From NCBI GenBank assembly GCA_045629645.1, contig JAZQRR010000026.1:1-63626 (forward strand): 63,626 nucleotides of DNA. The letters are read 5' to 3'. The stretch is from Candidatus Enterousia sp. (GTDB taxonomy: Bacteria; Pseudomonadota; Alphaproteobacteria; Rs-D84). The position numbers and the translations under genes were made by a program. This document shows, in pieces, positions 5,850 through 60,773 of the stretch (the first letter of the stretch is position 1; each line of letters opens with the position of its first letter). The notes beneath the pieces were generated by a model, which saw only the letters and a program-made list of their open reading frames with translations, did not search any database and was not told the DNA's origin.

Positions 5850-6008
5850 TAAAAATCGTGAAAATGAAAACAAGATTTGACTTTTGTCGATATTTATATA
5901 AAATTAATCGGCAAAATAAAAATGGCCTGTGGTGAAAATCATAGGTTTTGGTATCGAGATGCTGGGTGGACTTGGCATTTCGCAGTTAAATAAAAAGGAA
6001 AAAGAAAA

Positions 6009-6386
6009 ATGGCACGTATAGCAGGTGTTAACATTCCGACAGAAAAACGCATTGAAGTTGCGTTGCAATATATTCACGGTATTGGTCCAGCCAAGGCTGC
6101 CCAGATTTGTGAAGCGTTGAAATTAAAAGACGGTTTGCGCGCAAAAGATTTGACAGACGCGGATGTTATCAAAATTTCTAAATATATTGAAGAAAACTTT
6201 ACAGTAGAAGGTGATGTTCGTCGTGAAGTTGCAATGAACATCAAACGTTTACAAGATTTAAAAGCATATCGCGGTATCCGTCATCGTAATCGTTTGCCGG
6301 TTCGCGGTCAGCGTACACAAACAAATGCCCGTACACGTAAAGGTAAACGTGTAGTAGTTGCAGGTTCAGCAACCAAGGGTAAGTAA
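6009..6386 (+). CDS. rpsM: 30S ribosomal protein S13
   Basis: [26 protein letters not shown] is the S13 signature. Confidence 0.95.
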
Positions 6387-45854: not shown

Positions 45855-46204
45855 ATGGTTTCCTTTGTTTGTATGAATTTATTATGTTCAAATTGCTGTT
45901 ATGAATCACTAGGAACGTTTGGACAGTAACAGGATAAAAATCAGTTGTTTCATTATCTGTAATGTAATATAATTGAATTAACATTGGATATTCCGGTGTT
46001 TGGGGTGTCACAACCTAAAAAAAAAATCACTCCGTCTGTGGGCAAAACGGACGTAAAAATTAATAGTGCTCCAACGTATAACAGGTTGGAGGGCTCGTGA
46101 ATATATTGAATAAGCGGCACAATTTTTTGAGTGAAAAATTGTTGTGAACCTCCAGCCACCTTGAATATTGGTGGCTTTTTTGTTTGGTTGTGTGGGGGAT
46201 TTTT

Positions 46205-46987
46205 ATGCGCAGGTTTTTGTTTTGTTTCGTTTTTGCCATGGTTGCGTTATGTAACGTGGCGTTTTCAGTTGTACCCGATTCGATTGATATAAAATGGATG
46301 GTTGATGGAAATCTGTACAGTCAGTCAACATGTGAATACGGTGGTGATGTAATTGTGCCTGATATTCCGACCAAGCGTGGTCATACATTTGTCGGATGGC
46401 GTCGTAATTATATTGAATTGGAATATTTGGAAAGTACCGGAACACAATGGATTGATACGGGGATTCGTGGGAACATGAGTTATACGTATGAAATTGATTT
46501 TAGGCAAACAAATACAAAAGAGTGTCGTAATTGGGGGGTGTTTTCAACAAACAAATATGAAGATTCAAATATGTCTCTTACCTGGAGTAGAGGGTGGGCG
46601 GTAAGGTGGGGTAGTGTATCTGGTGCAGATCCTAATCGAATAGATTTGTCTGTGATAGATACAAATAGACATGTATTAAAAATCATGGATGGTGTTGTTT
46701 ATTGGGATGGGGAGAATATGGGTAGAACTGTTGATCATAAATATAATTTTGTGTTTGAACATAATTTGTTTTTAGGAACAGTTAATCCAGGAGGAAATAC
46801 TCCCGAAATGAATGCGTATTCAAAATATTATTCATATAAAGTATGGAGTTATGATGGTGTGTTAATCCAAGATTTTATACCTGTTCTGGACTCGTATGGT
46901 GTGCCGTGTATGTATGACCGGGTGACAAATGAATTTTTCTATAATCAGGGTACGGGACAATTTATTGCGGGGCCGGTTAAACAATAA
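46205..46987 (+). CDS. Secreted protein with a Listeria-Bacteroides (InlB B-type) repeat
   Basis: Signal MRRFLFCFVFAMVALCNVAFS. YGGDVIVPDIPTKRGHTFVGW fits the GYTFxGW repeat consensus. Confidence 0.6.
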   Translation: MRRFLFCFVFAMVALCNVAFSVVPDSIDIKWMVDGNLYSQSTCEYGGDVIVPDIPTKRGHTFVGWRRNYIELEYLESTGTQWIDTGIRGNMSYTYEIDFRQTNTKECRNWGVFSTNKYEDSNMSLTWSRGWAVRWGSVSGADPNRIDLSVIDTNRHVLKIMDGVVYWDGENMGRTVDHKYNFVFEHNLFLGTVNPGGNTPEMNAYSKYYSYKVWSYDGVLIQDFIPVLDSYGVPCMYDRVTNEFFYNQGTGQFIAGPVKQ

Positions 46988-48978: not shown

Positions 48979-49899
48979 TTATTTTCTTTTAATTTCTGTT
49001 AGTATTGAATTTAAGTCGTCGTCTTTTTTTGGGTTGTATATAATATCTTTGAATTCTTCTGACATGTAGAAGTCAAATTTAGAGGGGCGTGATTTAATTA
49101 TGACAGATTGATCTCCGCATTGTCCGTCGTATATCAAGTCTGTCCCTTGTTTATGAAAAGTTCCTTTACATGTTACAATGCATCTGAAAGATTCATTAAA
49201 AAATCTGTTTAATATACATTTGTATTTGTCTGTGTTTTCTGAATAAGAACAGATTGCAATGCTGTCTGTTTCTACAATCTTTACTGGAACTATTGAGCTT
49301 TCGTCCATGTCTGCGACCTGTTTGCCAGCGCGACATATATTGGCTGGGATATCAAACATATGTTGAACGAGTGTTGTTATAGGCAAATTTAATGGGCCGT
49401 ATGTGGTGACAGATGATTGGGAATTATATTTTTTTATGGAGTATTCGTATGCTTTTAAATATAAGTCTCGGCATTTTTGTCTGTTGAGTGTAGGGTATAT
49501 CTCTGTTGTTGCTATGCATGTAAAATAAATTTCAAATACAGATGCGGATGAATCGATTTGTTCTTCCCCGTATGGTTTAGATATTTTCTGTCCTTTTTCT
49601 TTTGAGTATTTTGAATCAGTTATGTTGTGCGTATATGCGCTGGCGAATGCCATCATATCGTCATGTGTAAAATTTGCTTCTTTCATCATATTTTCAAGTT
49701 CTTTGTATGTCCAAATAAAATGTTGTTTAAGTTCATAGGAGTCATCATGTTTATTTAAACGCCAAGAAATAAAGTCTTTGTCAATGTACGCTAATGATTG
49801 TTCTTGAAATTTTTGGACAGCAAATTCACCAAAAGTGGTTGATGCATACAAATTAAAAACATGAAAAAAAATTATTAAAATAGATATTATTTTTAACAT
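48979..49899 (-). CDS. Hypothetical secreted protein (306 aa)
   Basis: GGGGGAGAG RBS and signal-like MLKIISILIIFFHVFNLYAS. No family recognised. Confidence 0.6.
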   Translation of the reverse strand: MLKIISILIIFFHVFNLYASTTFGEFAVQKFQEQSLAYIDKDFISWRLNKHDDSYELKQHFIWTYKELENMMKEANFTHDDMMAFASAYTHNITDSKYSKEKGQKISKPYGEEQIDSSASVFEIYFTCIATTEIYPTLNRQKCRDLYLKAYEYSIKKYNSQSSVTTYGPLNLPITTLVQHMFDIPANICRAGKQVADMDESSIVPVKIVETDSIAICSYSENTDKYKCILNRFFNESFRCIVTCKGTFHKQGTDLIYDGQCGDQSVIIKSRPSKFDFYMSEEFKDIIYNPKKDDDLNSILTEIKRK

Positions 49900-49926
49900 T
49901 TTTCTCTCCCCCTTTTTTTCTGAGAT

Positions 49927-50142
49927 AAAATAAGACCACCTAGAAATCGGTGGTCGGGGAGTTCATAAATCAGAACATTGTTGATCCCATTGGTCTTTCG
50001 GATTACCGTATTTTATACACCAACAGCTCCCCGACATGGATCAGGGGATGACGGTACAAAAAGCACCGAATAATAAGATTACGATGCTTTCGCACCGAAT
50101 GTTCTGGGCTTATGAAGGCCCCGATTCCAATCACTTGGATTC
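49927..50142 (-). promoter_or_regulatory. Structured 5' leader, copy A of an unassigned RNA motif, ending in an intrinsic terminator
   Basis: Colinear with 59550-59751: CCAA-GNGA-UUGG hairpin, GGGC..GCCC, CGGUGC-loop-GCAUCG, CGGUGC-loop-GU[AG]CCG, CCCUGA, GUCGGGGAG...CUCCCCGAC, then a terminator. Confidence 0.55.
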
Positions 50143-50165
50143 TTTGGTATCATAACATAAAATAT

Positions 50166-50213
50166 ATGTATGTGCAAGACGATACCGTTACACCAGAATA
50201 GTCTGTGGTGATT
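50166..50213 (+). repeat. Direct repeat X2
   Basis: Copy of 47728-47780, with an exact 23-bp core GACGATACCGTTACACCAGAATA. Confidence 0.7.
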
Positions 50214-52347: not shown

Positions 52348-52421
52348 TGGTTGGGGCAGCTGGATTCGAACCAACACTGACGGAGTCAGAGTCCGGAGTT
52401 CTACCATTAAACTATGCCCCA
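52348..52421 (-). tRNA. tRNA-Gln (anticodon CUG), CCA encoded
   Basis: Hand-folded cloverleaf: acceptor UGGGGCA/UGCCCCA with the U1-A72 pair typical of bacterial tRNA-Gln. D stem GUUU/GAAC, anticodon loop CUCUGAC, T arm GUUGG-UUCGAAU-CCAGC. Confidence 0.85.
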
Positions 52422-53513: not shown

Positions 53514-56500
53514 ATGTCCAGTAATAAGTATTTAACAGACTTGTTAAAGGTTTGTAGTGTGTTGCCTGTGTTGGCGACTTTGCCGGCAATGGCTGATATT
53601 CCTGCACCCGTAGATGGTGTTGTTGCGGGCCAGAATATTTCTGGTGATTCATCTGGTGGGTATAGATTAGATAACTTGAATTCTGATTTGATAATATCAG
53701 AATCTGCTTTTACAGGTAATTCTTATGATGGAAATGGTGCTGCCGCATGGGCGACATCTGGACATAATTTAGAAGTAAAAGATTCAGTCTTTACAGGTAA
53801 TACTGTTGCTGGGATTGCCGGTGCTTTTGGTGGTGGTACCAAAGCGGGTTTTTTGAAAGTATCTGGTTCAAAGTTCATAGATAATCATGCAGAATTAGAT
53901 GGTGGTGCGATTGCTTCTTACGCCGGTTTAGCTATTTCCAATTCTGTTTTTGATGGAAACTCGGCTCAATATGCAGCGGATGAAAATGGTGAATATAATG
54001 TTCCTGTTGTTGATGGTACGCCGATTGGTGGTGGTGCATTAGCATTGGGGGCGGTTTCAAATACTACAATTGCTGCAATTGATTCAACTGTGTTTAAGAA
54101 TAATGTTTCTGGTGCAAATGGTGGCGCGATTGGTACACGTTTGGCATCGGATGCAGACAACAGTGCGGCGAAGTTGGATATTGCTGCAACATTTGAAAAT
54201 AATACCGCAGCAAAGAGTGGGGGTGCGATTTATAACACCTTTTATGCAAATAACGGCCTGGGTAAAGGTGATGGGGTAACAGTTACAGGTATCTTTACTG
54301 GTAATAAAGCGGGTGTATCAGGTGGTGCAATTTATAATGATGGCGCAACAGACAAGGCTGGTAATTTCGGTGGTGTTATGACAGTTAATAATGCTGCCTT
54401 TACAGCTAATTCTGCAACAGATGAAGGTGGTGCGATATTTAACAAGGGAAATATGACTGTTGTTGGTTCAAAATTTGCCGACAATAATGTGGTTGATGGT
54501 TTTGGCGGTGCAATCAAAAACAATGGTCAGATGACAATTGAAAATTCTGTTTTTGAAGATAATATTGCATATTCTAATGGTGCAGTATCTACGTCTGGAA
54601 AAACAGGTAGTACAAAAATATCAGGCGCAACATTTAAAGATAACTCTGCGCTGGCAGACGGTGGCGCGTTGGGATTATACTTGGATGCAACAGTAACTGA
54701 TACTGTTTTTGAAGATAATAAGTCTGCATTTGGGGTGGAGGTTGCTGGAACAAAATACGACGCAGCATCTGACGCAAACGGTGGTGGCGCTTTGATGGTT
54801 GGTCAAAAGGCAACTGCAACATTGAAAAATGTTAAGTTTATCGATAATGAAACAGGTGCAACTGGTGGTGCAATTCATGCGCGTCATCATAAAAAAGATA
54901 ATGCATATTTGAATATTGATGGTGCGTTGTTTGATGATAACGAAGCAAAAGTAAATGGTGGTGCGATTGCGACTATTTATGATGGTGAAGTAAATATCAA
55001 TAATGCACAGTTCGTATCAAACAGTGCCGCGAAAAACGGTGGTGCGATTTATAATGGTGTTGATATGAACTATGGCAGTTCTGATGGAACTGGCAGTTTG
55101 TCAACAGACCATGGTACAATTAACTTTACTGGTGAAAATGTTTTCCGTGGAAATGTTGCAGGTATCAATGGTGGTGCAATCTATAACGACGCAGGTGGTA
55201 CAATTAACTTTGCAGGCGTTAATACATTTGCAGATAATACATTGGCATCTGGAACCAAAAACGATATTTATAATCTGGGTACTGTGAATGTCTTATCTGG
55301 TACAACAAATATCAGCGGTGGTATTACAGGTAATACAGGTATCTTGAATATTGGTGCGGATGCGGTTTTGAATATGGCCACATCTAATATCAATCAAAGT
55401 GCAATTGTTATTGATGGTACTGTTAATGCAGACGTTCTAAATTCGGATAAATATGCGAAGTTGCAAGGGGCCGTCAGTGGTAATGGTAAATTAAACCTGA
55501 ATGTTGGTTCTGTTGGAACATATAGAATGTTCAGTTCTGCAAATGATATTGCGATTGATGCAGGGGCAACATATACCGTAACAAACAATGGTGCAGATGG
55601 CGTTATTATTGAAACAAAGTCTGTTGATGTTTTGGCAAAAGATACAGGTTTGTCTGAACGTGCCGCAGGTGCAATATCTGGGTTGGCAAATTCCAAGAAT
55701 ACAAATATTCAAAAAGTGTCTTTAGAGGCGCAAAAAGCGTTGAATTCTGGCGATGTTGAATTTGTTGAAAAAGAAACAGCAAAATTGAACCCAGAAGATA
55801 AACCTGTTACACAATCTGTTGCGTCTTCTGTTCAAAATCAGGTTTTGGCATTGACTTCGGGTCGTATGTCGGGTGGTGTTGCAAACATCGGTCGTGCCGG
55901 TGGTGATGAAACAGCACAAGAATCTGGTTTCTGGGCACAAGGATTGTTCAACAAAACCAAAAATGCAAGCAACTTCCATGGATATACTCGTGGGTTTGCG
56001 CTGGGTATGGATACGGTGATTGATCGTAAATATACATTAGGCTTTGGTTTTGCTTATAACAATACAGATGTACATTCTGGCAGCCGCAGTACAGATATCA
56101 ACAGTGATACACTGTTTGTGTATGGTCAGTATAAGCCAAGTGATTGGTATGTAAATGCAACATTGACATATACAATGGCAGAGTATACAGAAAATGTAGA
56201 TCCGTTCGGTGTCGCAATTGAAAGCAACTATGATGTTGATACATATGGCGCACAGTTGATGACTGGTTACGATTTGGCATATGGATTCACACCAGAAGCA
56301 GGATTGCGTTATCTGCATATCACACAGGATACTTATAACAATGGTGTGAACACTATCAAAGGTTCTGACACTGACTTCTTGTCTGGTGTTGCTGGATTAA
56401 AGTACACATTTGCAATTGAAACAGAAAATGCGTTGCAATTGCGTCCAGAAATGCGTGCCGCAGCAACATATGACTTTATCAGTGACAAGGCAGAAACAAC

Positions 56501-56687
56501 AGTTGTTATGCCAGGGACAGGATCTTATAAAGTTGGTGGCGAACGCTTGTCCAGATTTGGCGGCGAATTCGGTATCGGTTTGACTGCTGAGTATAAGGGT
56601 ATGGAATTCTCGGTATCTTATGATCTGGGATTGCATGAAGATTATACTTCACAGACTGGTATGATTAAGTTCCGCAGTCAGTTCTGA
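53514..56687 (+). CDS. Autotransporter with polymorphic-membrane-protein (Pmp-type GGAI / FxxN) repeats
   Basis: More than 12 GGA[IL] motifs alternate with FxxN (FTGN, FIDN, FKNN, FENN, FADN, FEDN...). C-terminal beta-domain ends in ...GMIKFRSQF. Confidence 0.85.
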   Translation: MSSNKYLTDLLKVCSVLPVLATLPAMADIPAPVDGVVAGQNISGDSSGGYRLDNLNSDLIISESAFTGNSYDGNGAAAWATSGHNLEVKDSVFTGNTVAGIAGAFGGGTKAGFLKVSGSKFIDNHAELDGGAIASYAGLAISNSVFDGNSAQYAADENGEYNVPVVDGTPIGGGALALGAVSNTTIAAIDSTVFKNNVSGANGGAIGTRLASDADNSAAKLDIAATFENNTAAKSGGAIYNTFYANNGLGKGDGVTVTGIFTGNKAGVSGGAIYNDGATDKAGNFGGVMTVNNAAFTANSATDEGGAIFNKGNMTVVGSKFADNNVVDGFGGAIKNNGQMTIENSVFEDNIAYSNGAVSTSGKTGSTKISGATFKDNSALADGGALGLYLDATVTDTVFEDNKSAFGVEVAGTKYDAASDANGGGALMVGQKATATLKNVKFIDNETGATGGAIHARHHKKDNAYLNIDGALFDDNEAKVNGGAIATIYDGEVNINNAQFVSNSAAKNGGAIYNGVDMNYGSSDGTGSLSTDHGTINFTGENVFRGNVAGINGGAIYNDAGGTINFAGVNTFADNTLASGTKNDIYNLGTVNVLSGTTNISGGITGNTGILNIGADAVLNMATSNINQSAIVIDGTVNADVLNSDKYAKLQGAVSGNGKLNLNVGSVGTYRMFSSANDIAIDAGATYTVTNNGADGVIIETKSVDVLAKDTGLSERAAGAISGLANSKNTNIQKVSLEAQKALNSGDVEFVEKETAKLNPEDKPVTQSVASSVQNQVLALTSGRMSGGVANIGRAGGDETAQESGFWAQGLFNKTKNASNFHGYTRGFALGMDTVIDRKYTLGFGFAYNNTDVHSGSRSTDINSDTLFVYGQYKPSDWYVNATLTYTMAEYTENVDPFGVAIESNYDVDTYGAQLMTGYDLAYGFTPEAGLRYLHITQDTYNNGVNTIKGSDTDFLSGVAGLKYTFAIETENALQLRPEMRAAATYDFISDKAETTVVMPGTGSYKVGGERLSRFGGEFGIGLTAEYKGMEFSVSYDLGLHEDYTSQTGMIKFRSQF

Positions 56688-58066: not shown

Positions 58067-59479
58067 ATGCTAGAATATTTAAGAAATGCATCTGAAAAAC
58101 CAATTGCAAAATTCTTGATTGCAATATTGGCGTTTTCTTTCGTTGGTTGGGGCGCTGCGGAATGGATTTTTGGCGGCGCGGTTGGTGATAATGCACTGTT
58201 GTATGTTGGTGACGCAGAAGTGTCCGGACAACAGTTTAACGCAGAAAAGTCTCGTGAATTGGCGAAAATGGATCGCGAAACGCAGCGTAGTATATTTACG
58301 GATGCGGCGGCACAAAATAAGTTTGCTCAACGTGTGATAACAGATTTGTCTGTTCGTCAGATGGCGCAGAACCGTGCAAATGATTTAGATTTTGTTGTCA
58401 GTGATAAACGAATCGCGCGTGAAATTCGTGATTTTACAGAATTTCAAGAAAATGGTGAATTTTCTGAACAAAAATTTGATGAAGTGTTATATAATTCGGG
58501 CTATTCCGAGGCTGATTTTGCAGATGTTCTGCGTGGTCAGGTATTACGTTCAATGGTTCTGGGGTCTGTTGGTGTGCCTGTGCCGGTGCCAGAATTTGCG
58601 TTGATGGCGGTGTATAATGCCAGATACGGTTTGCGCGATATTGAATATGCGACTGTTAAATATTCTGAATTTAATGTTGGTGCGCCGACAGATGAACAAT
58701 TACAGGCGTTTTATGCGCAAAATCCGCAGGTTGTTCCAGAAACAAGAAGTGTTTCTTATGTCTTGGTGCCAGCAGAAATGACACAGCCAGATAAATATGA
58801 TGCGGCGTATAATATTGCGGTCAAGGTGGAAGACGATATTATCGCAGGCGATTCTATGAAACAGGTTGCAACGAAACATGGTGCAAAATATGTTGATTTG
58901 GGCTATTTTGCGCGTGATTCACGTCCTGTGGACAAGGTTTTGTCGGATACAATCGTTGCAAAAATATTTGATATGGAAGCAGGGGTGGAAAGTGAAATGA
59001 TTGAAACCAAAGATGGCTTCTTGTTCTTGCGTGTGGATGAAATTAATCCTGCACATACCGCAAAGTTTGAAGATGTAAAAAAGTCTTTGGTGGCAGATTG
59101 GAAAAAGGCAGAACAGAAAAAACAAGCCTATGTTCGTGCAAATGAAATGTTGGTTGATTTGAACAAGGGTGAAAAGTTGGCGGGCAAAAAGTCTGTCAGT
59201 GTTTCACGTGCGTCTGGTGCGCCAGCCAACGTCTTGGTTGCAGCGTTCCGTAATGAAGCAGGGCAAAATTTGATTGTGGATGGAAATGATGCTTTCTATG
59301 TTTTGTCGGTCAAGAAAGCAGTTCAACCAAAAGTTGATGCAAAAAAGAAACAAGCATTGCAGCAGGAATTAGAAAAAATGTCTGCGGCTGGTTTGATGGA
59401 CGATTATAATTCGTTCTTGATGCGCGAATATCCAATCAAGATAAATGATAAGGTATATAATCGTTTGTTTGCAAAATAA
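58067..59479 (+). CDS. ppiD: PpiD/SurA-N-type periplasmic chaperone (peptidyl-prolyl isomerase D-like)
   Basis: MLEYLRNASEKPIAKFLIAILAFSFVGWG is the N-terminal anchor typical of PpiD. The ATG at 58067 has an AAGGGGA RBS. The ORF-track extension to 57857 overlaps tpiA and was discarded. Confidence 0.75.
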   Translation: MLEYLRNASEKPIAKFLIAILAFSFVGWGAAEWIFGGAVGDNALLYVGDAEVSGQQFNAEKSRELAKMDRETQRSIFTDAAAQNKFAQRVITDLSVRQMAQNRANDLDFVVSDKRIAREIRDFTEFQENGEFSEQKFDEVLYNSGYSEADFADVLRGQVLRSMVLGSVGVPVPVPEFALMAVYNARYGLRDIEYATVKYSEFNVGAPTDEQLQAFYAQNPQVVPETRSVSYVLVPAEMTQPDKYDAAYNIAVKVEDDIIAGDSMKQVATKHGAKYVDLGYFARDSRPVDKVLSDTIVAKIFDMEAGVESEMIETKDGFLFLRVDEINPAHTAKFEDVKKSLVADWKKAEQKKQAYVRANEMLVDLNKGEKLAGKKSVSVSRASGAPANVLVAAFRNEAGQNLIVDGNDAFYVLSVKKAVQPKVDAKKKQALQQELEKMSAAGLMDDYNSFLMREYPIKINDKVYNRLFAK

Positions 59480-59507
59480 AAAAATCCCCGTTTTGGGGAT
59501 TTTTTTA
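59478..59507 (+). terminator. Stereotyped terminator palindrome
   Basis: AAAAAAATCCCCGTTTTGGGGATTTTTTT. Confidence 0.7.
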
Positions 59508-59549
59508 TTTATATATTTACATTTTTGTCTAAATGTTTTATACTGATAT

Positions 59550-59751
59550 GGAATCCAAGGGATTGGGTTCGGGGCTGTGGTGGCCCGCAAACACGGTGCA
59601 AATGCATCGTTATCTGATGTTTCGGTGCTGTTTGTGCCGTTATTATCCCTGACGTATTTTTTTTGGTCGGGGAGCCGTTTGCCGCAAGGCGCGGAGCATT
59701 TGTTTGCTGACACCAACTCCCCGACCGCTCTTTCTTGGGCGGTGTTTTTTT
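59550..59751 (+). promoter_or_regulatory. Structured 5' leader, copy B of the unassigned RNA motif, ending in an intrinsic terminator
   Basis: Same ordered helices as 49927-50142 (minus strand). The terminator ACCGCTCTTTCTTGGGCGGTGTTTTTTT ends 14 nt before the ATG at 59766. Confidence 0.55.
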
Positions 59752-59765
59752 ATAAAGGAGTAAAT

Positions 59766-60773
59766 ATGAAAAAATCTACGGCTTTAACTATTGGGGCTAT
59801 TGCGCTGTTAAGTGCGGGGCTTTCATTCGGTGTAAAATTTAAACAAAGAAAAGATTATGAAGAAAAATTGAAAACAATTTTAATTCCTGACGCAGAAAAA
59901 AAACTGGACGATTTGTTGCGTGAAGATGTCGCATTAAGAGATAGTGTTATTAAGTTCGAAGAAGCACAAAAAATGCTGCAAGAGAAGAAGGGTGCTGATG
60001 CAGAAGTGATAGATACAGCTTTCTTGGAATTAGAAGGCATAGTTGACACTTTATGGTCGCAATGGCACGATCGTCCGTCCGAAATTTTTTATGGTGAGTT
60101 TGGTAATGAGACACATGAATCACCAAGCAATTGGGATGTGCAGTCTTATTTGCCAGCAGATAATCCAGATGCACGAACAGATAAAAAAGCAATAGAACTG
60201 TACAAGGAAGTGTTTCATCGCACCGGTAATAAGTCGCATTATTATCCTGTTGTTCCAGATTATGGGGAAAAATTTATGCTTAAAGATGCATTGGTAATTC
60301 CCGCGTTATATGAAACAAGAGGAATACTTAATTTTTATTATGATGAAAATGACACAGAATTAACCCAAGATATGGAAGCGTTCTTTGCGATAATGGTAAA
60401 TGCGATTGGAAGTACCGTAGAAGACACTCGGGGTTGTGGTTTTAATAACTTTGATACATATATATATAATGGTAGCCCGAAACTTAGGTTAACTATATTA
60501 AAATCCTTGCAATCTTTTATTAATTCTGTTGACAATTCTAAGAATGTTTTTGATGCAAAAACATTGAATCTTTTGGATAAAAAAGTGAAAAAGTTGTTGC
60601 CAATTATTGAAAAAAAAGTCCAGATAGAAAATAAAGAAATACAGACGAAGCACAAATTGGAACATTTTAAATCTGCAAAAGAGTCTGTAGAAAATCGCGT
60701 GGTACAAGAAAGAAAGCATTTGGATGTTTTAAAGACAACGAATATAAGAGAATTGATGAAAAAAGAAAAATAA
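59766..60773 (+). CDS. Hypothetical exported or membrane-anchored protein (335 aa)
   Basis: AAAGGAG RBS and MKKSTALTIGAIALLSAGLSFG. The ORF-track start at 59577 runs through the RNA leader and was discarded. Confidence 0.6.
   Translation: MKKSTALTIGAIALLSAGLSFGVKFKQRKDYEEKLKTILIPDAEKKLDDLLREDVALRDSVIKFEEAQKMLQEKKGADAEVIDTAFLELEGIVDTLWSQWHDRPSEIFYGEFGNETHESPSNWDVQSYLPADNPDARTDKKAIELYKEVFHRTGNKSHYYPVVPDYGEKFMLKDALVIPALYETRGILNFYYDENDTELTQDMEAFFAIMVNAIGSTVEDTRGCGFNNFDTYIYNGSPKLRLTILKSLQSFINSVDNSKNVFDAKTLNLLDKKVKKLLPIIEKKVQIENKEIQTKHKLEHFKSAKESVENRVVQERKHLDVLKTTNIRELMKKEK

Follow-up and report, generated by a model that had tools for sequence, protein, structure and literature searches.

A 5' leader RNA family of gut Alphaproteobacteria with alternative pairings, a candidate riboswitch-type attenuator

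The c-di-GMP-I and c-di-GMP-II riboswitches (GEMM) join a covarying, pseudoknotted or tetraloop-rich aptamer-like 5' domain to an intrinsic terminator, and they occur in several copies per genome ahead of adhesin genes, surface-structure genes and genes of unknown function. Four-segment attenuators, such as the trp and pyr leaders and those of the PyrR and BglG/SacY type, use consecutive, mutually exclusive pairings, the last of which is an intrinsic terminator right before the gene. T-box leaders are large multi-helix RNAs of about 200 nt that choose between terminator and antiterminator and are used many times per genome. In the SAM-II and preQ1-II riboswitches, a pseudoknot between a hairpin loop and a 3' strand restrains a strand of the expression platform. 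The EAR, HK022 put and LoaP-associated leaders of processive antitermination lie upstream of surface-polysaccharide or surface-structure genes and contain terminators. Each of these systems resembles in part two related leader RNAs, copy A and copy B, found in a 63,626-nt stretch of DNA from Candidatus Enterousia sp. (assembly GCA_045629645.1, contig JAZQRR010000026.1; Alphaproteobacteria, Rs-D84), the whole of which is called the window here. A preliminary description of copy A had proposed a riboswitch or attenuator of a class that it could not match to known ones.

The two leaders also differ from all of these systems. Compared with c-di-GMP-I and -II, they are about twice as long and have pseudoknots made by the loops of two hairpins, P2 and P8, around a four-way junction, and the GEMM covariance models gave no match at E<=10 to copy A, copy B, or two further family members (L042 and L037:7293-7464). 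The pairings that we call C1:G2, G2:C2 and C2-terminator follow the consecutive, mutually exclusive logic of the four-segment attenuators, but the proposed anti-antiterminator C1:G2 sits inside a large pseudoknotted fold. The locking proposed below resembles that of SAM-II and preQ1-II, which are small H-type pseudoknots and mostly translational, whereas the leader would combine two loop-strand pseudoknots and a four-way junction with control of termination. Unlike T-box leaders, these RNAs belong to an alphaproteobacterial lineage; there is no Rfam T-box match, T-box sequence and specifier-loop features were not seen, and the Pfam survey of downstream genes has no aminoacyl-tRNA synthetase or amino-acid gene. 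Processive antitermination differs in that the leader-controlled units of the window are short and monocistronic, the terminator directly abuts the RNA, and the alternative pairing indicates local attenuation instead of polymerase modification. By analogy, multi-copy second-messenger riboswitches over surface proteins would be the closest functional counterpart, and the closest mechanistic ones would be pseudoknot-locking riboswitches and classical four-segment attenuators.

Copies A and B are members of an apparently undescribed 5' leader RNA family of gut Alphaproteobacteria in the Rs-D84/Enterousia lineage. The leader is very probably a functional cis-regulatory RNA, and we assign a probability of roughly 55% to the specific switch model in which it is a riboswitch-type transcription attenuator that acts in cis and responds to a small-molecule effector. 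Copy A (50142 to 49927, minus strand) is colinear with copy B (59551 to 59751, plus strand) at 75% column identity in a MAFFT alignment. The covariance model R1, built from 75 non-identical copies of the longer subtype (type I), matches copy A over its full length at 188.8 bits and copy B at 169.2 bits. The colinearity had been noted in the preliminary description, and the seven elements listed there are all present in both copies. The R1 scan of the window gave no family copies beyond these two, the next same-type match being a terminator at 8 bits. Both RNAs are far more stable than expected from composition: the minimum free energy (MFE) is -84.1 kcal/mol for copy A (z = -6.65) and -89.4 kcal/mol for copy B (z = -5.62), and none of 200 dinucleotide shuffles was as stable in either case. 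The genes that follow encode proteins of 306 and 335 amino acids, which are unrelated to each other, as had been claimed (BLASTP E = 1.5), and neither has a Pfam or NCBIfam match.

The family is large. One genome per GTDB species was scanned with a 20-base pattern of the 5' end (AATCCAAGNGATTGG N1-4 TCGGGG), which located 81 loci. Three are chance matches (a Vibrio, a Planctomycetota metagenome-assembled genome (MAG) and locus L047), and 78 are full family members in alphaproteobacterial MAGs from gut, rumen or faeces, many of them named Candidatus Enterousia. Colinearity of these 78 copies with those of the window extends from end to end, promoter, terminator and ribosome-binding site (RBS) included. 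Since 78 of the 81 loci with the 20-base signature are full members, the resemblance of copies A and B is not due to chance. In the MAG RUG12675 alone, two contigs with a combined length of 0.57 Mb carry at least five copies. On the fetched loci, R1 also recovers copies missed by the pattern, and the divergent ones among them (including L037:7293-7464, L018:7414-7591 and L030:1545-1734) define a shorter subtype, type II, of about 170-190 nt. Type II has C1 CUCCAAC, G2 GGUUGGAGG(G), C2 CCUCCAACC and a single P4 hairpin. Its triple signature of C1, G2 and C2 was matched by at least 120 metagenome contigs, whose samples came from the rumen, the gut of other animals and the human gut (L083-L204 are the metagenome and viral loci). 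Type II often accompanies type I in one genome and locus; the window contains no type-II leader. Both subtypes together provide about 200 leader copies beyond the two in the window.

Novelty was assessed against databases and literature. Across the whole window, the 4227 covariance models of Rfam 15 gave only tRNA and a borderline Alpha_RBS match at the gathering threshold. At E<=10, copies A and B, the best type-I copy (L042) and a type-II copy (L037:7293-7464) returned terminator-like or random noise far below threshold, which agrees with the earlier failure to place copy A in a known class. An Rfam match, a lack of further copies or a lack of covariation had been named beforehand as grounds for giving up the proposal; the searches returned instead some 200 copies, very strong covariation and only noise in Rfam. 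Full-text literature yielded nothing relevant on Rs-D84 riboswitches or on the leader signature sequences. A mobile-element origin was considered and rejected, because blastn with the leaders returned nothing from the phage and plasmid collections, and IMG/VR has 2 matches to type II and none to type I. Enterousia, a member of the order Rs-D84, has genomes of 0.75-1.0 Mb without a TCA cycle, a respiratory chain or standard transporters (PMC12306168).

The order of the transcription unit is the same across the family: sigma70-type promoter, structured RNA, intrinsic terminator, RBS and ATG. When 76 copies are anchored at base G1, the first base of hairpin P1, a -10 peak (T/A/a/A/A/T) stands at -13..-8 and TTG at -36..-34, and the rest of the 50 nt upstream is otherwise unconserved. 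This fixed promoter register places the transcription start at base G1. A terminator is present in every copy, and an RBS with a same-strand open reading frame (ORF) follows within 200 nt in 71 of 75 type-I copies, mostly at 10-35 nt from the U-run. With its near-consensus promoter and strong terminator, each copy should allow a discrete stable RNA to accumulate, and at least one tandem pair of leaders (L137) has no intervening gene. The leaders could on these grounds encode an abundant small RNA, structured and about 170-230 nt long, that acts in trans or belongs to a ribonucleoprotein, with downstream expression as incidental read-through. This is improbable given the RBS and ORF placed so regularly behind the U-run; also, no separate promoter for the downstream genes was noticed, although no test was aimed at one. 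The variable P3 and pseudoknot strands differ between paralogues, contrary to what a shared trans-pairing seed demands. A single-stranded seed shared by the copies independently of the gene was not found: the variable segments are paired, and the conserved ones lie in alternative intramolecular helices. The conserved overlap of C1, G2, C2 and terminator would moreover be purposeless in a pure small RNA.

Cis-regulation is the preferred reading, and the covariation of the structure is very strong. Type-I pairs were counted in 77 sequences in an alignment, A4, that was fitted to R1 and whose columns are cited here; RNAalifold on an unfitted MAFFT alignment gave 48 pairs, 27 of them with compensatory changes. 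Hairpin P1 (columns 1-8:13-20) is 99.5% paired, with a sequence fixed by the search pattern, and it covaries in L007:5996-6206 (GAACUGACA-GGGA-UGUCGGUUC) and throughout type II. P2 (23-26:37-40) is 98.7% paired, pair 26:37 being CG47/UA10/UG10. The P2 loop forms a pseudoknot (PK): its segment PKa pairs with PKb, just 5' of CUCCCCGACC / AACUCCCCGACC (31-35:230-234; 99.5% paired), with double changes at 5/5 pairs and three or four pair types at three positions. The long-range helix P3 (43,45-50:215-220,222; 99.6% paired) has double changes at 7/7 pairs and three or four Watson-Crick types at each position. P3 closes a four-way junction with the arms P4/5, C1:G2 and P7. The long P4/5 helix (53-63:104-114) is 97.2% paired. 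C1:G2 (123-131:145-153) is 95.6% paired and changes from G-C to A-U in five sequences and from C-G to U-A in one. In the P7 arm, the base (155-158:202-205; 99.7% paired) exchanges CG and UA in 16-26 sequences, and P7b (173-175:186-188) is 97.9% paired. The terminator helix (248-251:270-275) is 97.4% paired and covaries across the family. P8 in type I is AAUCA/UGAUU, with pair 208:228 AU40/GC8; its strands flank the 3' strand of P3, which forms the loop of this small hairpin. Either P3 and P8 form together, giving a second loop-strand pseudoknot reciprocal to that of P2/PK, or the two alternate. When helix partners are slid by 1-3 columns, pairing falls to 36-54% and covariation nearly disappears. 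The leader thus has a conserved structured domain with covariation support in the 5' untranslated region, as riboswitch classes do.

Many conserved pairs are G-U, so the structure is selected at the RNA level and on one strand. This bears on the proposal that the family is a DNA-level repeat without RNA function, for example a miniature inverted-repeat transposable element (MITE), a repetitive extragenic palindrome (REP) or a recombination site. The multi-copy occurrence and the inverted repeats inside the leader would fit such a repeat, but strand-specific covariation effectively refutes it. The conserved G-U pairs become C-A mismatches on the opposite strand, where R1 scores about 21-26 bits against about 160-240 bits on the RNA strand (21.8 bits for the reverse strand of copy A). 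Orientation to promoter, terminator and gene is fixed, and compensatory changes keep the pairing as the sequence diverges.

The alignment substantially revises the first structure model, which had rightly seen that the helices persist through compensatory changes and contained neither the pseudoknot, nor the long-range P3, nor the C1:G2 hairpin. In element 2, the loop had been regarded as free and unrelated between copies; it is PKa. CCCUGA, taken as single-stranded, is C1 and pairs with GGUCGGGG (G2). Inside element 6, where the sequence was supposed to be free, lie P7, the 3' strand of P3, P8 and PKb. Elements 3 and 4 had been drawn as two hairpins, which can form locally (99.7% and 93.9% paired). 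Hairpin 4, a local P5, is impossible in the L007 and L018 lineages, where the long P4/5 helix persists, and column 63 (GU48/GC14/CG5/UG5 in the long helix) fails 11 times in the local hairpin; the two-hairpin model was accordingly set aside as a possible transient fold only. A nested closing helix between segment G1 and C2, present in the MFE and alifold models, is 99.8% paired in type I with zero covariation. It was rejected in favour of P2 and the pseudoknot, since it is also unconserved in type II while P2 covaries there. The mutually exclusive UCGGGG/CCCYGA pairings envisaged earlier do hold, but the pairing of CCCUGA with the first UCGGGG (G1:C1) is unsupported and breaks where C1:G2 is compensated.

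The apical P4/5 arm contains the best-conserved ATG of the leader (UGAUGUU, A4 column 88), which starts a frame of some 20 codons. This ATG occurs in 51/77 type-I copies, with no Shine-Dalgarno-like sequence upstream by eye, and no conserved ORF for a leader peptide was found. Copy A has UAU at this site (50062-50064 region), and the region is absent in type II. The conserved sequence of the arm probably gives rise to this AUG incidentally.

Type II retains the architecture in a shorter form. It keeps P1 (a variable stem with a GNGU-type loop), GGGG-PKa-CCC, P3, one P4 hairpin, C1:G2, P7 and P8, followed by PKb, the AA linker, C2 and the terminator; the conserved P4/5 sequence is missing. Covariation was counted in an unfitted MAFFT alignment of a curated set of 34 diverse sequences. 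The pseudoknot reaches 98.2% pairing, with compensation at 5/5 pairs; covariation is seen at 7/8 pairs of P1, pair 52:70 of P4 is CG22/UA6, and P8 (ACAAUU/AAUUGU or ACUAU/AUAGU) is 94.1% paired with pair 144:161 AU22/UA11. Global MAFFT alignment and RNAalifold on 120 type-II sequences did not recover the variable helices. An alignment-free anchor test was also applied, in which a PK of at least 5 bp and a P3 of at least 6 bp must lie in register, with a copy's own partner segments compared against those of other copies. Among the type-II matches listed, 104/112 copies passed with their own partners, against 148/1235 combinations with other copies' partners, and the matches contain 99 distinct P3 3' strands. 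Among the same matches P2 covaries as well: GGGG:CCC is replaced by GAGG:CCU in 16 and GGAG:CUC in 2, and C2 remains CCUCC.

The evidence for a switch centres on segment G2, which has two conserved partners on the same columns: C1:G2 is 95.6% and G2:C2 94.4% paired. At pair 153:239 (AU47/GU20/UA8), column 153 pairs with C2 in every sequence and fails with C1 in 10, and at columns 148 and 150 the compensation is specific to C1:G2 (in L035/L037 and L064). Between the subtypes, C1 changes from CCCUGAC to CUCCAAC and C2 from CUCCCCGACC to CCUCCAACC, both following the change of G2 from GGUCGGGG to GGUUGGAGG. Segment G1 does not follow; it stays GGGG or GAGG in type II, paired with the 3' strand of P2. 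It is difficult to see why C1 and C2 should change in concert, with G1 unmoved, if the two C strands did not both pair with G2. In both subtypes C2 shares its last 3-4 nt with the start of the terminator stem. This overlap indicates that G2:C2 is an antiterminator and C1:G2 an anti-antiterminator, and the leader has mutually exclusive helices in which the terminator serves as expression platform, as in riboswitch classes. Attenuator with alternative pairings is thus the part of the original proposal that the comparative data support, and riboswitch stays a candidate label.

In the proposed mechanism, transcription would begin at base G1 from the sigma70-type promoter. If the pseudoknotted fold is locked, C1 would keep G2, C2 would be tethered away from G2, the terminator would form and the gene would be off. 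C2 begins 2 nt after PKb, the linker being two A residues, and G2 lies at the junction beyond P3. With only two A residues between PKb and C2, C2 would be held too far from G2 in the P2/PK-P3 stack. If the pseudoknot is not locked, C2 would displace C1, and the G2:C2 antiterminator would allow read-through into the gene. The polarity, in which effector binding locks the pseudoknot and turns the gene off by termination, is suggested by the geometry of this model only.

Several points weigh against the model. Energy models of nested structures give the terminator state as the MFE for 67/77 copies, with the antiterminator state less stable by 14.4 +/- 4.5 kcal/mol. Since the terminator fold dominates, read-through would be decided kinetically or be factor-driven; a kinetic decision would have to be made within a window of roughly 15-20 nt, after C2 has been synthesised and before the terminator 3' strand has. 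The covariation unique to G2:C2 is limited because C1 and C2 are near-copies. P1 and segment G1 in type I, and C1, G2 and C2 in type II, were fixed by the search patterns, so that nothing can be learned from their invariance within each set. Among the surveyed downstream genes there is no transporter or biosynthetic gene to indicate a metabolite, and a regulon free of metabolite genes is also typical of protein control. The evidence for both switch and effector is comparative throughout.

The dominance of the terminator state would suit a constitutive 5' cassette of promoter, stabilising leader and leaky terminator that spreads with accessory genes, giving low fixed expression, with any switching coming from elsewhere, such as slippage of an RBS homopolymer. 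The leader does precede many unrelated accessory genes, restriction-modification and helicase genes included, and an RBS homopolymer is the sole difference between two otherwise identical copies. This reading is nevertheless quite doubtful. It leaves unexplained the 10-bp alternative helix over the terminator, the concerted change of C1 and C2, and the strong purifying and compensatory selection on the pseudoknots, and the near absence of the leader from phage, plasmid and viral sequences does not fit a spreading cassette.

The downstream genes of both subtypes are heterogeneous and include secreted proteins, lipoproteins, autotransporters, glycosyltransferases and some defence genes. The 71 type-I ORFs fall into about 36 unrelated clusters. 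By a heuristic, 47/71 of the type-I proteins have signal-peptide-like N-termini, 12 of the 47 with a lipobox. Their Pfam matches are Flg_new, Chlam_PMP, GT8, GT92/GT2, RgpF, Acyl_transf_3, Ank and 8xMP, and nothing else; Listeria-Bacteroides repeat proteins form a 17-member cluster, and Chlam_PMP-repeat autotransporters also occur. Flg_new surface proteins account for 50/104 of the genes downstream of type II among the matches listed, and the others include an ephrin-receptor-like Cys-rich protein, a trypsin-like protease, an EcoRI-type methylase, a UvrD-like helicase and many small unknown proteins. The regulon looks like a variable pool of surface, host-interaction and accessory genes, and the leaders look built to switch such genes on and off. 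A second messenger as global signal, or else a protein regulator, fits this pool better than a pathway-specific metabolite.

A trans-acting macromolecule is the main competitor for the role of effector. RfaH, UpxY or LoaP-type and other protein regulators have regulons that resemble this set of surface and accessory genes. The same cis attenuator could respond to a protein that binds RNA and causes antitermination or termination, to a specialised NusG-type factor or to an RNA in trans; this macromolecule would be one that binds the conserved P1 loop, the P4/5 arm or C1 and so decides between C1:G2 and G2:C2. A heterogeneous regulon without metabolic genes is what one would expect of it, the strongly favoured terminator fold makes an active read-through factor plausible, and sequence conservation exceeds what pairing demands both in the P4/5 arm and in the P1 loop, which is GNGA in type I and GNGU in type II. 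We still regard a macromolecule as unlikely: no candidate protein was found, the monocistronic window units have no need of processive antitermination, the conserved P4/5 sequence is absent from type II, and RNAs that bind ligands are the more typical bearers of so ornate a pseudoknotted core, with its conserved nucleotides at the junction. A small-molecule global signal, for example a nucleotide second messenger, is favoured as effector because the regulon is heterogeneous. The signal is perhaps a nucleotide second messenger or a partner-derived metabolite, and type I and type II could sense different signals.

In its most specific form, the proposal is a new riboswitch class whose reciprocal double pseudoknot (P2 loop with PKb, P8 loop with the P3 5' strand) binds a global small-molecule signal and, by termination, controls much of the surface proteome and accessory genes. 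This is tentative, and we would not give it even odds. If it is true, such termination control would operate in symbionts with genomes below 1 Mb that probably have few protein regulators, and the leader may be their main switch for surface presentation to host or partner. If confirmed, the family would be a large, well-supported orphan riboswitch candidate from an uncultured, genome-reduced lineage, in which about 200 natural variants are already enough to define the structure. The junction-embedded anti-antiterminator, the pseudoknot-tethered antiterminator strand and the two reciprocal loop-strand pseudoknots would make a distinctive design. Rfam has no model for the leader, and adding one would improve the annotation of many rumen and gut MAGs.

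In the window, copy A is read on the minus strand. Its promoter, TGCACA-16 nt-TATGAT, is TG-extended and sigma70-like (50149..50176). The leader RNA, from base G1 to the terminator U-run, is 216 nt long (49927..50142, supported by R1 and MFE), as the estimate of about 215 nt for a structured leader with an RBS-abutting terminator had it; the promoter is an addition. The 5'-terminal hairpin P1, GAAUCCAA-GUGA-UUGGAAUC (50123..50142), is followed by the P2 hairpin GGGGC...GCCC (50106..50122), whose loop bears PKa CAUAA (50110-50114). The 5' strand of P3, GAACAUU (50098..50104), has its partner at 49973-49979. The P4/5 arm (50052..50097) forms the long helix CGGUGCGAAAG:CUUUUUGUACCG, with the local hairpins as possible alternatives. 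C1 CCCCUGAUC (50039..50047), the proposed anti-antiterminator strand, pairs with G2 UGUCGGGGAG (50027..50036), which could alternatively pair with C2. The P7 arm (49987..50026) has an A-rich internal loop and a small capped hairpin. The segment at 49964..49986 comprises P8a GAUCA, the P3 3' strand AAUGUUC, P8b UGAU and PKb UUAUG. C2 CUCCCCGACC (49952..49961), the proposed antiterminator 3' strand, shares its last 3 nt with the first 3 nt of the terminator stem. The intrinsic terminator (49927..49955, hairpin 49934-49955) is GACCACCG-loop-GGUGGUC followed by UUAUUUU. A7 and G5 homopolymers and the RBS GGGGGAG (49906..49919) precede the ATG of the 306-aa protein, which has a signal-peptide-like N-terminus (48979..49899).

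The RBS of copy A (49906-49919) can be compared with Logan contig SRR25159584 (L001:~340-356), which has an identical leader and 306-aa gene. Over 360 nt, the RBS homopolymers are the sole difference, A7 G5 AGAG in the window and A8 G8 AG in L001. Orthologous Flg_new-type genes in other loci have G5-G7 ahead of the ATG. The difference could reflect slipped-strand phase variation of translation initiation or a homopolymer assembly error.

Copy B lies on the plus strand with a sigma70-like promoter, TTTACA-17 nt-TATACT (59516..59544). Its leader RNA of 201 nt, supported by R1 and MFE (59551..59751), has a short P7. In the P2 hairpin (59571..59586), PKa GGUG (59579-59582) pairs with PKb CACC (59711-59714). 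The P3 5' strand GCAAACA (59587..59593) pairs with 59701-59707, and C1 UCCCUGACG and G2 GGUCGGGGAG form a hairpin (59646..59674). P8a, the P3 3' strand, P8b and PKb occupy 59695..59714. C2 CUCCCCGACC (59717..59726) overlaps the terminator stem by 3 nt. The intrinsic terminator (59724..59751, hairpin 59724-59743) is ACCGCUC-UUUCUU-GGGCGGU followed by GUUUUUUU; in both window copies a G+C-rich hairpin leads directly into the U-run. The RBS AAGGAG and the gene, with ATG at 59766, extend over 59755..60773 and encode the 335-aa protein, which has an N-terminal hydrophobic segment. From U-run to RBS/ATG the distance is 14 nt in copy B and 27 nt in copy A, the two ends of the range first given. A longer ORF from GTG 59577 was dismissed as an artefact, as its reading frame passes through the copy B RNA. 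A strong, bidirectional-looking terminator, AAAAAAUCCCCGUUUUGGGGAUUUUUUU (59474-59510, plus strand), closes the preceding PpiD-like gene immediately 5' of the promoter, which makes copy B an insulated transcription unit.

Neighbouring genes in the window encode radical-SAM, HD, RgpF, Flg_new, autotransporter, VirB11-like, GrpE, TpiA and PpiD-like proteins. Two genes of types that bear the leader in other genomes are without it here: a Listeria-Bacteroides-repeat protein (46184-46987, plus strand) and a 1057-aa autotransporter-like ORF (53514-56687, plus strand; not itself scanned with Pfam). For these two, R1 matched only a terminator at 46121-46183. A tRNA-Gln (CUG) gene, the sole one (52348-52421, minus strand), is flanked by the HD-domain gene and a hypothetical gene; its distance from copy A is 2.2 kb in the upstream direction, at higher coordinates. 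The borderline Alpha_RBS match (5951-6041, plus strand; 39.1 bits against a gathering score of 38) belongs to a family of gammaproteobacterial alpha-operon leaders. It spans a hairpin and the start of the downstream coding sequence (AUGGCACGUAUAGCAGG...), and since the genome is alphaproteobacterial, the score may owe much to conservation of that coding sequence.

Two further arrangements were seen elsewhere in the family. At L137:2329-2604 (minus strand), the tandem type-II leaders stand about 200 nt apart, and the first would be an orphan that yields only a terminated small RNA. In nine loci (L008, L011, L064, L077, L089, L097, L102, L105 and L130), a G+C-rich palindromic repeat (e.g. TTCCCCTCTGGCTAGAGGGGTGGCACGAAGTGACGGGGTG) inserted just after the leader terminator moves the start of the gene downstream by about 100 nt. 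The repeat resembles a small element of the REP or MITE kind belonging to these genomes.

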